Source: Promethearchaeota archaeon Loki_b32
GTDB taxonomy: Archaea > Asgardarchaeota > Lokiarchaeia > Sigyniarchaeales > SOKP01
Length of the DNA: 64,000 nt
NCBI GenBank assembly: GCA_005223125.1
Contig: NJBH01000011.1
Span: forward strand, 1 to 64,000
Reading direction: 5' to 3'
The notes under the pieces were generated by a model. The model saw nothing but the letters and a program-made list of their open reading frames with translations. It made no database searches and was not told the origin of the DNA. This document shows positions 27,020-46,927 of the stretch, piece after piece (position 1 is the first letter of the stretch; each line of letters opens with the position of its first letter). The translations under genes and the position numbers were made by a program.

Positions 27020-27136
27020 AACAAATCCTAACCATTCAATTTTTTGTCTTGATTTGTGTGTAACAATTTTTATCTATAGTATATTGAATTTAGTCAGTTA
27101 TTTAAATGAGCTTATTTTTTACATTTGTGATCATCA

Positions 27137-39067: not shown

Positions 39068-40174
39068 ATGTCAGAAGATATAGTATATGTGGATGCTAAC
39101 ACTCTTGAAAATTTTATGAGAGATGTTTTTATAGGACTTGGTGTCCCAGAGGAAGATGCTACTATCATTGCTGATGTATTAATTACATCAGATAAAAGAG
39201 GTATAGATTCACATGGGATACAGCGGTGTAAAATGTATTATGACCGTATTAAGGAAGGAATTTATGAAGCAATTACAAAAATTGATATTATAAAAGAGGG
39301 CCCTACTACAGCTCTTTTAGATGGAAATTGTGGAATAGGTCATGTAATAGCTCATAAGGCAATGAAGATGGCAATCGAAAAAGCAAAAAAGTATGGATTA
39401 GGAGCAGTAGCAGTAAAGAATTCTACTCATTTTGGCATTGCAGGCTATTATTCGCTTATGGCAATAGAAGAAGGTATGATTGGGATAACAGTTACCAATG
39501 CAAGACCCTCTATACCCCCCACATTCGGATGTGAACCAATGTTAGGAACAAATCCTTTGACTGTTGGAGCTCCTACTGATGAGAAATTCCCTTTTCTAAT
39601 TGATTGTGCCACATCAATTATTCAAAGAGGAAAAGTTGAAATTAACGCTCGGATTAATAAACCACTTCCAGAAAATACTGTAATAGATGATAAAGGTGAG
39701 ATCATGACTGATCCTAATAAGATATTAGACGAAATGCTAGAAAGAAAAGCATCTTTATTGCCATTAGGAGGAAAAGGTGAAGAAACAGCGGGTTACAAAG
39801 GATATGGTTATGCAACAGTTGTAGAACTTCTTTCAGCCGCCTTACAAGATGGAATTTACTTGCGAGATACACTAGGAATAGTTGAAGATAATCAAAAAAG
39901 ACTAAAGGTAGGTCATTTTTTTCTAGCAATTAATGCAGAAAGCTTTATTGGAGGGGATTCATTCAAAAAAACTGCTGGTAACATAATGAGGGATTTGAGG
40001 GGGTCAAGAAAGATTCCTGGAGTTGGGCGGATTTACACAGCGGGAGAAAAAGAATACATAGCAGAAAATGAGAGAAAAAAATCTGGTATCCCTCTTAATA
40101 AAAGTCTACAAAATGATATTAAAATCATGCAAAACGAACTCGGGCTAAAAAAACATAAATTTCCTTTTTCTTAG
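39068..40174 (+). CDS. Ldh_2 family (malate/lactate/sulfolactate) oxidoreductase
   Basis: GIDSHG, NSTHFG, GTNP, DCATS and GYKGYG motifs. Confidence 0.92.
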   Translation: MSEDIVYVDANTLENFMRDVFIGLGVPEEDATIIADVLITSDKRGIDSHGIQRCKMYYDRIKEGIYEAITKIDIIKEGPTTALLDGNCGIGHVIAHKAMKMAIEKAKKYGLGAVAVKNSTHFGIAGYYSLMAIEEGMIGITVTNARPSIPPTFGCEPMLGTNPLTVGAPTDEKFPFLIDCATSIIQRGKVEINARINKPLPENTVIDDKGEIMTDPNKILDEMLERKASLLPLGGKGEETAGYKGYGYATVVELLSAALQDGIYLRDTLGIVEDNQKRLKVGHFFLAINAESFIGGDSFKKTAGNIMRDLRGSRKIPGVGRIYTAGEKEYIAENERKKSGIPLNKSLQNDIKIMQNELGLKKHKFPFS

Positions 40175-40298
40175 TTTTTATTAGTATTAAGGAATCTATA
40201 TTACTTTTTGTATAATCCAAGAAAACAATTACATATTTCTAAATTATTATTTTTAACAAGTGCTAAAATTTTTATATTAGTTAACTAATCTATAAGTT

Positions 40299-40406
40299 AT
40301 GGGCAAAAATTTTGTTGAAAAGCCTTGTATAATATATAATGGCTCCTGTCAATCCCCTGGATTTTTGTCTTTTGGTTGTTGTGTAATTAATTACACACAA
40401 GAATAA
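40299..40406 (+). CDS. Leaderless small ORF, PGFLSFG peptide copy A (35 aa)
   Basis: TATA (TTTATAT, 40271) about 25 nt upstream of the ATG; shares an in-frame, identical 22-nt core with 46805..46927. Confidence 0.6.
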   Translation: MGKNFVEKPCIIYNGSCQSPGFLSFGCCVINYTQE

Positions 40407-40466
40407 CCTACTCTGCCTTTTGAAATTTTATGCCTCTCATTGAGGCTTGTTGGCAGGAGCTACCTT
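40341..40466 (+). promoter_or_regulatory. Structured RNA element copy A (attenuator-like)
   Basis: Closing helix 40341-52/40450-61; hairpins TGTGTA-attaat-TACACA and GCCTC-tcatt-GAGGC. Confidence 0.6.
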
Positions 40467-40540
40467 TATTAATTTGAACTTTAGAACTATTTTAAAGTTA
40501 AAAAAGAAGATCTAAATCTCTATAAACGCTATTATTATCT

Positions 40541-41386
40541 CTATAGTAAAAGAAAAGTTCCTAACAGATATGTATCTAAATTCAAATCTTTTAAGAGTTT
40601 CATATTGTTATAAAGATAAGCATAAATATTTTCCTCGCTAAAATATTTAAAACAAGAGTTGTTCCCTTTTACTTCCCTTAAGATATTTACAATTTGAGTA
40701 AGTATCATTTTTAGATTTTTAATAACCAAATTAGTATCACTTTTAATTAGATTAATGTCTTTAATGTTAAACCATGATTCTTTGCTAAAAGAAATATTCT
40801 TTAACTCTGGTTTATTTTGAAAATCTTCATGGTTTTTGAAATTTTTACAAAAGTATTCAATTTTGTTTAGAATTAAACTTTTAGATTTACTATACATTTT
40901 ATTTTCAATAATATTTCTTAACATTATAAGGATTTTTTGAAAGATACCCAAAATATCAAAAAAATCAGCTACTTGTGCCAGATCTTCCACTTCTCCCCAT
41001 TGACTATAATAATCTTCGATTTCGTTAAGAAATGGCAAGAATACATTAATATCTCCGTCCCAAGTATGTCCTTTTTTTTCCCATACAGGATCAAATTCTT
41101 TTATAAAAGCATTTTTAATGACATTTAATCGTCCTAAAAGAAGCTCAGTCTTTATATGTTTTGTATCAGCTGCAACAAAAAGTAGATTATATTTTTCTTC
41201 TAATATATAAACCCACCTTAAACCTCCCATTTCTATAGAATCCAATGATTCTTTAAATTCAACCATTGAAAAGTGATGAAATGCTGTTAAAAACCCAGAA
41301 ACAATATCTTCATCAGCATCCGTTTTCAAAAAAGATCTATATAATAATTTAACTCCAGATTCGGCATCTAATATCCAAATTATCAT
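40541..41386 (-). CDS. Longin-like domain protein, paralogue of 17474..18319
   Basis: IWILDAESG, DIVSGFLTAF, SIEMGGLRWVY and VADFFDILGI are shared with the paralogue. Confidence 0.7.
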   Translation of the reverse strand: MIIWILDAESGVKLLYRSFLKTDADEDIVSGFLTAFHHFSMVEFKESLDSIEMGGLRWVYILEEKYNLLFVAADTKHIKTELLLGRLNVIKNAFIKEFDPVWEKKGHTWDGDINVFLPFLNEIEDYYSQWGEVEDLAQVADFFDILGIFQKILIMLRNIIENKMYSKSKSLILNKIEYFCKNFKNHEDFQNKPELKNISFSKESWFNIKDINLIKSDTNLVIKNLKMILTQIVNILREVKGNNSCFKYFSEENIYAYLYNNMKLLKDLNLDTYLLGTFLLL

Positions 41387-41547
41387 ATTACGAATGAAAA
41401 AAAATAGCTTCTCTTTAGGAGATAAATATATTACTCTTTTAAATTATTTCTAAATATCTTTAGAAAAAAAATATAGGGTTTATATACATTGAAGCGTCAG
41501 TAATTATATTTTATACATTGCCTTTTGAAATTGCTACATCACATTCT

Positions 41548-42555
41548 TTAATGAATATCCAAAAAATGTTCAATTTTGCTTAGTTTAAACAAGAGCCAAG
41601 ATTTGAATTGTTTAAAATCTAATAATGAGGGAATTTCAGAATACTCCGATAAATTATCATAAAGTACATCAATAACAGAATTTATAAGCCCGATAGCTTT
41701 AGGTCTAATTAAGACAATTTTATCCATCGATGATGTTTTAGAGTGTGCTTCTCTGTACTGTGATATAAATTCACATGCTCGTTGGATTATCATAATAGTC
41801 TGATTATCAAAATTTTTTTCAATACAGGCGTAAAAATCTCGTAATTCGGCGTCTTTATAGGGAATTTTCCAATCTTTCATAATTCCAACCCATTTGCCTA
41901 GAGAAATTGACTTTTTTTTCATAAGATCTCCGAACTTATTATTAAATTCTGGTGAAGTGTTTTTTCTTCTAAATTTACTCTGATATAATTCTGTTAATGG
42001 TCTAAGACAGGAGGAAAGTTTATCGTTAAGAATAGTCTCAAGACCCTTTGAATAATTATTAATAACGCTAGAAGCATCGAAATTAGCAGAATTTTGAAAT
42101 TGGTTAAAGATTTGATCTCCAGATGTAAACATCTTTCGAATTTCAAGATTAGAAATTTTATGGATCTTTAAACCATTTAACTGCTGTAAATTATTTTTAA
42201 ATTTATCAATTATATCTTCTATAAGATCAAGTTTGGTGTAGAACCAATCTCTAAATTCTTCTGGTTCTTCATATATAGAAGGAATAGATTCTGCTGGATG
42301 CGTGATTTCTTGAATCTTCAATGTGGGAATTTTATGTGGGGAACACTTGACCTGAGAAGGACTTTTTACTTTATTTAATATTATCTCAAAATCTAATTGG
42401 TCCGCTTCTGTTAAAGAATAATGAGATATATTCATCTGAGCCCATTCCTCAATAAACTCTTGTGGTATTCCTTTATTCCAATGATGATTACGTAAATAGT
42501 TAAATAATTTTTGCGGATCATATAACTCTTGCAATTCTAAATGTGACGGATTCAC
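41548..42555 (-). CDS. Hypothetical protein, possible degenerate HEPN-like C-terminus
   Basis: Long ORF with YSKGLE, SLGKW and REAHS motifs. Confidence 0.55.
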   Translation of the reverse strand: MNPSHLELQELYDPQKLFNYLRNHHWNKGIPQEFIEEWAQMNISHYSLTEADQLDFEIILNKVKSPSQVKCSPHKIPTLKIQEITHPAESIPSIYEEPEEFRDWFYTKLDLIEDIIDKFKNNLQQLNGLKIHKISNLEIRKMFTSGDQIFNQFQNSANFDASSVINNYSKGLETILNDKLSSCLRPLTELYQSKFRRKNTSPEFNNKFGDLMKKKSISLGKWVGIMKDWKIPYKDAELRDFYACIEKNFDNQTIMIIQRACEFISQYREAHSKTSSMDKIVLIRPKAIGLINSVIDVLYDNLSEYSEIPSLLDFKQFKSWLLFKLSKIEHFLDIH

Positions 42556-43117: not shown

Positions 43118-43411
43118 TCATGAAAAGATTACCGTTTTTAAGATATTATCTTTAAATTCTTCCCGTAATGCATTTTTTGTCACTACATCTACTTTACATT
43201 TAAATTCTTCTTCGAGAAATAAAGAAAGCCCAATGAAATCAAAAAGATCTGCTCCTTCCTCAAAATCGGCAAGTATATCAATATCACTGAATTCCTGAGG
43301 TTCTCCGTTTGTATAGGAGCCAAATAATCCTAATTCTTTCACTTTATATTTCTTTTTTAAATCTGGTTTTAGGTTAGTTAGCCTTCTAAGAATTTCTTTT
43401 TTATTAAGCAT
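43118..43411 (-). CDS. Minimal nucleotidyltransferase (MNT) antitoxin
   Basis: LFGSY, SDIDIL and KVDVV motifs. Confidence 0.92.
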   Translation of the reverse strand: MLNKKEILRRLTNLKPDLKKKYKVKELGLFGSYTNGEPQEFSDIDILADFEEGADLFDFIGLSLFLEEEFKCKVDVVTKNALREEFKDNILKTVIFS

Positions 43412-46671: not shown

Positions 46672-46759
46672 TGTATATCACTTTCTATTTTTTATGAATA
46701 CAACAAATATCAAGGAAATTTAAAGGAAAAAAATATGAAAATATTCTTATTTTTAAGAA

Positions 46760-46880
46760 AAGGTCACTCCCGCCCCATTAACGCAAGTATGCGTCGAAAA
46801 TATTTTAGGAGGAGGGCGAAATCAGAGTGTAGAAAACTACACTACCAAAAGACAAAAATCCAGGGTATAGGGTGGGAGTG
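46760..46880 (-). promoter_or_regulatory. Structured RNA element copy B (attenuator-like)
   Basis: Closing helix 46870-80/46765-75 (10 of 11 pairs); hairpins AGTGTAG-tttt-CTACACT and ACGCA-tact-TGCGT. Confidence 0.6.
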
Positions 46881-46927
46881 GAATTTATTTTAAATTCATA
46901 TTGAATATTCTTGAAAATTCTTGCCAT
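46805..46927 (-). CDS. Small leader ORF, PGFLSFG peptide copy B (40 aa)
   Basis: MARIFKNIQYEFKINSTPTLYPGFLSFGSVVFYTLISPSS; TATATAAA about 30 nt upstream. Confidence 0.6.
   Translation of the reverse strand: MARIFKNIQYEFKINSTPTLYPGFLSFGSVVFYTLISPSS

Follow-up and report, generated by a model that had tools for sequence, protein, structure and literature searches.

The window analyzed here, a stretch of 64,000 nt from contig NJBH01000011.1 of Promethearchaeota archaeon Loki_b32, carries at 40340-40470 (+) what is probably a free-standing gene for a folded RNA with a predicted length of about 125 nt, transcribed from approximately position 40299. Comparative analysis shows that this element (copy A) is a conserved, structured RNA gene with a predicted promoter of its own. 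Judged by its fit to a covariance model, it is a member of an uncatalogued, multicopy RNA family of Lokiarchaeia. Non-coding RNAs are almost undescribed for Asgard archaea, the closest known relatives of eukaryotes. The family merits attention because it is near-universal in a large Lokiarchaeial family, occurs in multiple copies, and combines an invariant strand resembling an Sm site with a complementary box at the 5' side.

A multicopy RNA family

An earlier note on this DNA, made from the sequence alone, had described copy A as the second copy of a structured-RNA element, with a common core at 40355-40376. Both points are confirmed. Covariance model R1, which was built from 18 members, scores copy A with 99.4 bits (E 9e-25) and the paralogue at 46749-46881 (-), copy B, with 113.4 bits (E 9e-29). 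The two copies have the 20-mer CCTGGATTTTTGTCTTTTGG in common (40356-40375 and 46845-46864 (-)), for which none of 100 shuffles gave a match. Copy A thus has the exact invariant core CCUGGAUUUUUGUCUUUUGG at 40356-40375, and on the strand that permits G-U pairing it fits the full model, in which the core is surrounded by a closing helix and a pair of hairpins.

With up to one mismatch, six copies of the core are present in this genome, and model R1 detects seven solid members plus a weak one. These copies have a common architecture, not a common sequence. The layout of a member is: closing helix, core, hairpin, pyrimidine-rich linker, second hairpin, 3' strand of the helix, (A/U/G)CC, and a U-run.

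Of 134 genomes from the same taxonomic family (13 genera), 126 contain a 19-nt core (up to one mismatch), usually in multiple copies per genome; the reversed control was found in none. The core is present in one of 14 genomes of a sister family and in no genome of the other families of the class. Nearly all public records that contain it are Asgard ("Promethearchaeota") MAGs. In one genus of the sister family, the model detects a diverged version with core UUUUAUUUUGUCUUUUUGG, which retains the UGAUUUCGCCC motif and has a fold of -57.5 kcal/mol. This variant is represented by loci L223, L225, and L227 (G016:C1) and by L226 (G017), and has no obvious 5' box; genome G016, a single contig of 6.0 Mb, carries three copies with core UUUUAUUUUGUCUUUUUGG. 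No convincing member was detected by model or pattern in sister-family genome G013, a single contig of 4.4 Mb.

Across the whole window, Rfam gave no match at gathering thresholds; the best sub-threshold match is to snoR31 (19 bits, cut-off 45). Neither a tRNA nor a tmRNA was found. A full-text literature search returned no description of such an RNA, and Rfam has no model for it.

Four viral contigs contain the exact core. In three of these it is a chance match or lies within coding sequence, and the fourth (L199; IMGVR_UViG_3300029288_000001, 224,826 bp) carries a diverged full member (42.9 bits) in its first ~135 bases. This viral copy, located at the very end of the contig, has its own closing helix and hairpins.

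Decayed or 5'-truncated copies, in which the 5' strand of the closing helix is gone or the core is degraded, were found at C44:63559-63683, C19:2232-2329, and C49:1603-1729 of G000 and at L215 (G105). The truncated copy at C49:1603-1729 overlaps the start of a 500-aa ORF without Pfam family. Many copies are located no more than a few hundred bases from a contig end (e.g., G000 C26:107; G023:C273:5; G056:C65:24; G060:C36:347). The repeat thus probably breaks assemblies, so that copy numbers from MAGs are lower bounds.

Fold and covariation

The earlier note had assigned a 12-bp closing helix to copy A, formed by GGCTCCTGTCAA (40341-52) and TTGGCAGGAGCT (40450-61) and containing G-U pairs that favor the plus strand. 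This helix is present, with G-U pairs at 40341/40461 and 40349/40453, and it grows to 14 bp in the minimum-energy fold, where 40340-53 pairs with 40449-62. The plus strand folds with -42.0 kcal/mol (z -5.7), the minus strand with -32.4 kcal/mol (z -3.1).

In this fold, the closing helix (P1; 5' strand 40340-40353, 3' strand 40449-40462) encloses a junction. It is followed by the invariant U-rich core CCCUGGAUUUUUGUCUUUUGGU (40355-40376), which is predicted to be mostly unpaired in the junction and has an identity of 1.00 among the orthologues. Then come hairpin P2 (40374-40408; inner stem GUGUAA/UUACAC, lower stem GGUU/AACC), the linker UAACCUACUCUGCCUUUUGAAA... (40404-40431), and hairpin P3 (40432-40446). 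The closing helix of copy A, 12-14 bp in length, hence surrounds a junction made up of the U-rich strand, which is invariant, a hairpin on either side of the linker, and the pyrimidine-rich linker itself. A 3' tail consisting of CC and a broken T-run (40463-40475) is the likely terminator; conservation drops after 40475.

The fold of copy A is supported by family-wide compensatory changes. Covariation was scored on 38 hits from 30-odd genomes, and compensatory changes were seen at all 22 modelled pairs (11 in P1, 6 in P2, 5 in P3), including both strands of the closing helix and both hairpins. Cells are paired in 93.8% of cases, compared to 35-43% when partners are slid, and none of 500 shuffles reaches the observed values. 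Within the copy A orthologues, covariation is uninformative because the stems hardly vary; a U-G pair of the closing helix is kept in 21 of the 22 rows of their alignment. The earlier claim of constraint at the nucleotide level is borne out.

A CUGA following hairpin 1 was considered as part of a K-turn or C/D-box. This reading was rejected since the motif is not conserved in the family and is missing from copy A.

The copy A locus across the genus

The convergent gene next to copy A (40541-41386 (-)) has orthologues in 51 of the 53 genomes of the genus. It ends at 40541, as had been noted earlier. Its label as a longin gene is less firm: the match to Fuz_longin_1 (E 0.013, 16.2 bits) stays below the cut-off of 26.1, so that a longin-like protein is plausible. 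The RNA is convergent to this gene in 21 of 30 fetched loci and in 7 of 13 more distant loci, thus in 28 of 43; it is absent or decayed in the remaining 15, and copy A is therefore dispensable in some species. In every orthologous locus that has the RNA, the next gene is convergent. Because the same arrangement is found in 28 of 43 loci across the genus, we consider it ancestral, with copy A never having had a downstream gene. This contradicts the proposal that copy A lost its regulated gene at the edge of an island, and the comparison of 43 loci throughout the genus revealed no missing downstream gene. As judged from gene order, copy A is shown to be a positional orthologue with a fixed place convergent to the longin-like gene across the genus.

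A conservation profile was computed from 21 close orthologues of copy A. Mean identity is 0.95 for the promoter (40263-77), about 0.75 for the leader region (40283-40315; 0.72-0.78 for the first ~17 nt of the predicted leader), 0.43 in a dip at 40326-37, 0.8-1.0 for the RNA body (40340-40470), and about 0.5 beyond 40475. In the DNA flanking the promoter, identity goes down to 0.2-0.5. The conserved block hence runs from promoter to terminator and is bounded by poorly conserved DNA, which, together with the convergent neighbor, argues for a stand-alone gene. The earlier alternative of a unit that acts alone as an sRNA is supported in this respect.

The upstream side of the locus is variable, with a divergent Ldh_2 paralogue in most relatives and a same-strand Ldh_2 gene in this genome. 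The latter (39068-40174) is directly upstream of the RNA. In the relatives at L049-L076, two Ldh_2 paralogues (~87% and 68% identical to the window gene) flank the longin-like gene. The differing arrangement suggests a local rearrangement.

The other paralogues of the RNA are positionally fixed as well; in 34 of ~119 loci, the RNA lies ~444 nt upstream of a radical-SAM gene. The paralogues are thus ancient, positionally fixed genes.

Promoter and complementary 5' box

A TATA element near 40271 had been reported, and TTTTTATATTA is indeed found at 40269-40279 (+). Together with an A-rich stretch, the TATA box TTTTTATAT forms the promoter at 40263-40279 (+). From the TATA distance, transcription is predicted to start at ~40299, which results in a predicted 5' leader of the primary transcript at 40299-40339 (+).

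Within this leader, the anti-core box GGGCAAAAATT (40301-40311 (+)) is a complement, with Watson-Crick and G-U pairs, of GAUUUUUGUCU in the core; the duplex of GGGCAAAAAUU with this part of the core has an energy of -10.6 kcal/mol. Such boxes were searched within 140 nt upstream of the members (Watson-Crick and G-U pairs) and in five equal-sized control regions, which included the antisense strand. The strict 11-mer box is found upstream on the sense strand in 37 of 104 members, compared to 1-5 of 104 in the controls; with one mismatch allowed, the figures are 71 of 104 and 18-30. Of the 37 members whose box is strict, 25 have a TATA box starting 28-35 nt ahead of it, which places the anti-core box at the extreme 5' end of the predicted primary transcript. 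In copy A (TATA at 40269-79, box at 40301-11), the box follows ~30 nt after the TATA element. The spacer between box and closing helix ranges from ~25 to 90 nt.

The signal is clear only with the strict pattern that includes a G-C anchor; by duplex energy alone, pairing between leader and core is weak (-9.8 vs. -8.9 kcal/mol), and the strict box is present in only about one-third of the members. In some members, the box lies directly against a TATA-like sequence, so that transcription may not include it in every case. Genome-wide, the box pattern is not over-represented (1167 occurrences vs. 1411 for the reversed sequence), and we therefore consider it specific to this RNA family. There are 48 TATA-preceded matches genome-wide, three of which belong to the family. 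A TATA element followed ~30 nt later by a core-complementary box (e.g., AGATAAAAATT), with no family core within 200 nt, occurs in the window at 27075 (-); further such sites are G000 C1:3555, C1:6325, C70:897, and C63:16256. These could be chance matches or the 5' ends of other RNAs that have this box in common with the family.

The linker between the hairpins

Most members carry the C-rich box UGAUUUCGCCCUCCUCCCCCUAU between the hairpins; copy B, too, is a paralogue with a C-rich box. In copy A and its orthologues, AAUAACCUACUCUGCCUUUUGAAA is found in place of the family box UGAUUUCGCCCUCCUCCCCC, with an identity of 0.95 across the orthologues; since copy A lacks the C-rich box, it represents a diverged subfamily. 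The linker motif of copy A occurs once per genome in 22 of the 53 genomes of the genus and in no other genus at up to two mismatches. More distant orthologues at the same locus carry ACCUUCUCCUACUU. From the comparison of AAUAACCUACUCUGCCUUUUGAAA, ACCUUCUCCUACUU, and UGAUUUCGCCCUCCUCCCCCUAU, it follows that the core is fixed and that the linker drifts while remaining pyrimidine-rich. A diversifying linker next to a fixed core is the pattern expected of a common scaffold with copy-specific specificity.

CTCTGCC, which had been proposed as an alternative pairing partner, is located at 40411-17, just past the TAA stop at 40404-06, as described. It belongs to the linker conserved in the copy A orthologue group only, and no covariation was found for the proposed switch.

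Searches of the genome by blastn-short with the linker, the C-rich box, and the core returned only low-complexity noise. The sequence AAUUUCAAAAGGCA at 41519-41532 (minus-strand transcript) is a perfect 14-nt complement of linker positions 40414-40427. It lies 18 nt past the stop of the gene for a 335-aa protein (41548-42555 (-)), and ~0.23 such matches are expected genome-wide. No counterpart was found in 20 orthologous loci, and we therefore treat it as a chance or lineage-specific match.

Proposed role of the RNA

Taken together, we slightly favor the reading that copy A is a free-standing gene for a folded, trans-acting RNA with a U-rich loop on which an Sm-like protein or another partner docks, and which the RNA's own 5' end can mask. 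The RNA would act in trans as a ribonucleoprotein, with the invariant strand GGAUUUUUGUCUUUUGG as the putative docking site of a conserved partner. An unpaired strand of 19-20 nt that is invariant across 13 genera and in all paralogues argues for a single conserved partner. The paralogue-specific, pyrimidine-rich linker may confer specificity to each copy. The primary transcript is predicted to begin with ~13 nt that are complementary to the U-rich strand and may cover it until the leader is removed or displaced; alternatively, the 5' end might lock the U-rich strand in a pseudoknot.

The most likely partner would be an Sm-like (SmAP/LSm) ring. According to PMC12360213, the Sm-site consensus is AAUUUUUGGAG for spliceosomal snRNAs and AAUUUGUCUAG for U7. 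The core includes AUUUUUG, similar to the former, and AUUU..GUCU, similar to the latter. The element GGAUUUUUGUCU between P1 and P2 has an A, a U-run, and a G in common with a site of the AAUUUUUGG or AAUUUGUCUAG type; the flanking purines are not in common. The core departs from the Sm consensus by a G in place of the first A and by a U after the G. Three genes with an LSm domain, at C6:63687-63878, C37:65430-65645, and C46:139-303, are encoded in this genome, which speaks to the availability of a partner only. The resemblance to both types of Sm site and the presence of these genes make docking of a ring on the core the favored option, which we regard as tentative and as having somewhat less than an even chance. 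U-rich strands can bind many proteins. If an Sm-like ring does bind, the RNA would be a concrete, testable archaeal counterpart to the eukaryotic Sm-class RNPs.

Simple complementarity to the genome, to orthologous loci, and to rRNA gave no convincing target. A pairing of the core with 16S rRNA at ~712 (-24.5 kcal/mol) was rejected, as 4 of 200 shuffles equal it and the reversed core reaches -25.4 kcal/mol; for 23S rRNA and other queries, pairing was no better than for shuffles.

Alternative explanations

A 35-aa ORF (MGKNF...PGFLSFG...YTQE) is present at 40299-40406 (+), and PGFLSFG begins with codon 20 in copy A and codon 22 in copy B, both as previously described. The element might therefore be a small-protein gene for a PGFLSFG micropeptide or a dual-function RNA. 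The start of the ORF roughly coincides with the transcript start predicted from the TATA distance, and PGFLSFG is in frame in both copies. Conservation of the peptide fails, however, as an ATG upstream of and in frame with the motif is missing from 14 of the 21 orthologues, and a stop is usually found a few codons 5' of the closing helix. In a set of 107 distinct members, ORFs that begin with ATG and extend to the core were counted 26 times for the PGFLSFG frame and 39 and 35 times for the remaining two; because the PGFLSFG frame is open no more often than the others, we regard the ORF as incidental. Two of the six copies in this genome lack a start codon, and a third, the C26 paralogue, has a conserved upstream ATG in another frame. 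Where the stems change, they do so in a way that compensates at the level of the RNA. The 35-codon ORF over the RNA, whose frame is not conserved, is thus accidental by sequence criteria and not a gene, the identity at wobble positions reflects constraint on the RNA only, and the small-protein reading is largely refuted, with a minimal probability left to it. A cis-acting leader, attenuator, or riboswitch, with its regulated gene lost at the copy A locus, would agree with the family's commonest locus, where the RNA precedes a radical-SAM gene of the same strand in 33 of 34 loci (median distance 444 nt). It is hardly probable, since copy A is convergent to its neighbor throughout the genus, family members end in a U-run, and contexts differ among paralogues. 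As to a leader-peptide attenuator, the ORF is not conserved and no same-strand gene lies downstream of copy A. To an equally small degree we consider a mobile or integration-related repeat, be it a miniature transposable element or an attachment site resembling a tRNA gene, which would account for the truncated or decayed copies (three in G000, one in G105), the many copies at contig ends, and the full copy at the end of the 224-kb viral contig. This is opposed by the fixed positions of the paralogues across genera and by differences between copies that consist of compensatory changes, not of recent identity. The 55 kb between an intact (C49:56481) and a truncated copy (C49:1729) hold housekeeping genes for CysRS, a radical SAM protein, and a ferredoxin-domain protein, with no integrase, and the idea of an integration site was rejected for this reason.

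Two further explanations assign a different function to the core and its 5' box. As the main alternative, the invariant core may be an antisense seed instead of a protein site and pair with purine-rich targets of the type AAGAYAAAAAUY on other RNAs, with the 5' box mimicking the target and keeping the seed closed. The box shows that a sequence of this type can form a duplex of 11-13 bp with the core and that selection acts on the pairing, and a seed is often the most conserved part of a regulatory RNA. Against this, the box pattern is no commoner genome-wide than its reverse, only 48 matches are TATA-preceded, of which three are in the family, and the core at its best does not exceed the controls in pairing with 16S rRNA. 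We consider the antisense seed unlikely, yet worth keeping in mind. Quite improbable, in our view, is a self-contained tertiary fold, in which the 5' end enters the junction as a pseudoknot and the core is structural in a very stable or catalytic RNA, e.g., one resistant to exonucleases. Pairing between box and core crosses the closing helix and thus results in a pseudoknot if both form together. The spacer between box and helix is variable, though, many members lack a strict box, and no known ribozyme or nuclease-resistant family in Rfam matches.

Comparison with known RNAs

The proposed trans-acting RNA with a docking strand resembles the eukaryotic Sm-class snRNAs, in particular U7, in having a short U-rich single strand beside a stem-loop (for the two site types, see PMC12360213) and in being multicopy and, as predicted here, small and stable. 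As in U7, there is a pyrimidine-rich stretch with CUCU/CCUCC; this is the substrate-recognition site in U7 and is located 5' of the Sm site there, whereas it is 3' of the putative site in the present RNA. Other differences are the G in place of the first A, the lack of a 3' GG/UAG, the enclosure by a long closing helix, and the self-complementary 5' box. The likeness is at most functional and would not indicate homology. The U7 snRNP, whose guide is pyrimidine-rich and whose Sm site is unusual, delivers a CPSF73-type nuclease to histone pre-mRNAs. In archaea, 3'-end cleavage makes use of the homologous aCPSF1 (PMC7515710). A snRNP-like particle of Loki-type Asgard archaea can be imagined by analogy, with an Sm/LSm ring on AUUUUUGUCU, the pyrimidine-rich linker of each paralogue guiding it to purine-rich sites on other RNAs, and the 5' box as an assembly checkpoint; we consider such a particle very unlikely.

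Small regulatory RNAs bound by archaeal SmAP or bacterial Hfq include multi-paralogue families such as Qrr. Like copy A, they are encoded by genes that stand alone, each with a promoter of its own and a U-run as terminator, and they combine a U-rich protein site with a variable recognition region, the paralogues being built on one scaffold. With 19-20 nt invariant across 13 genera, the present strand is far more constrained than Hfq or SmAP sites usually are, and those families are not known to have an enclosed multi-helix junction or a masking box at the 5' side (for archaeal SmAP-RNA surveys, see, e.g., PMC12817955). In addition, the 5' portion of the primary transcript could keep the active strand inactive until its removal, which is reminiscent of ArcZ and RprA. 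In enterobacteria, the precursors of these two RNAs are processed by RNase E, and processing frees the active strand. The masking duplex differs in that it would involve the extreme 5' end and would cross the closing helix.

Additional observations

No 16S rRNA was found in this assembly. A second 23S rRNA match of ~4.0 kb is located at G000 C68:17319-21347 (1570 bits, compared to 2480 bits for the match on C48), and may contain insertions or stem from a contaminant. In the window, a 97-aa protein with a nucleotidyltransferase domain (NTP_transf_2, E 4e-15) is encoded at 43118-43411 (-). Such nucleotidyltransferase-domain proteins are found in small toxin-antitoxin-like pairs.
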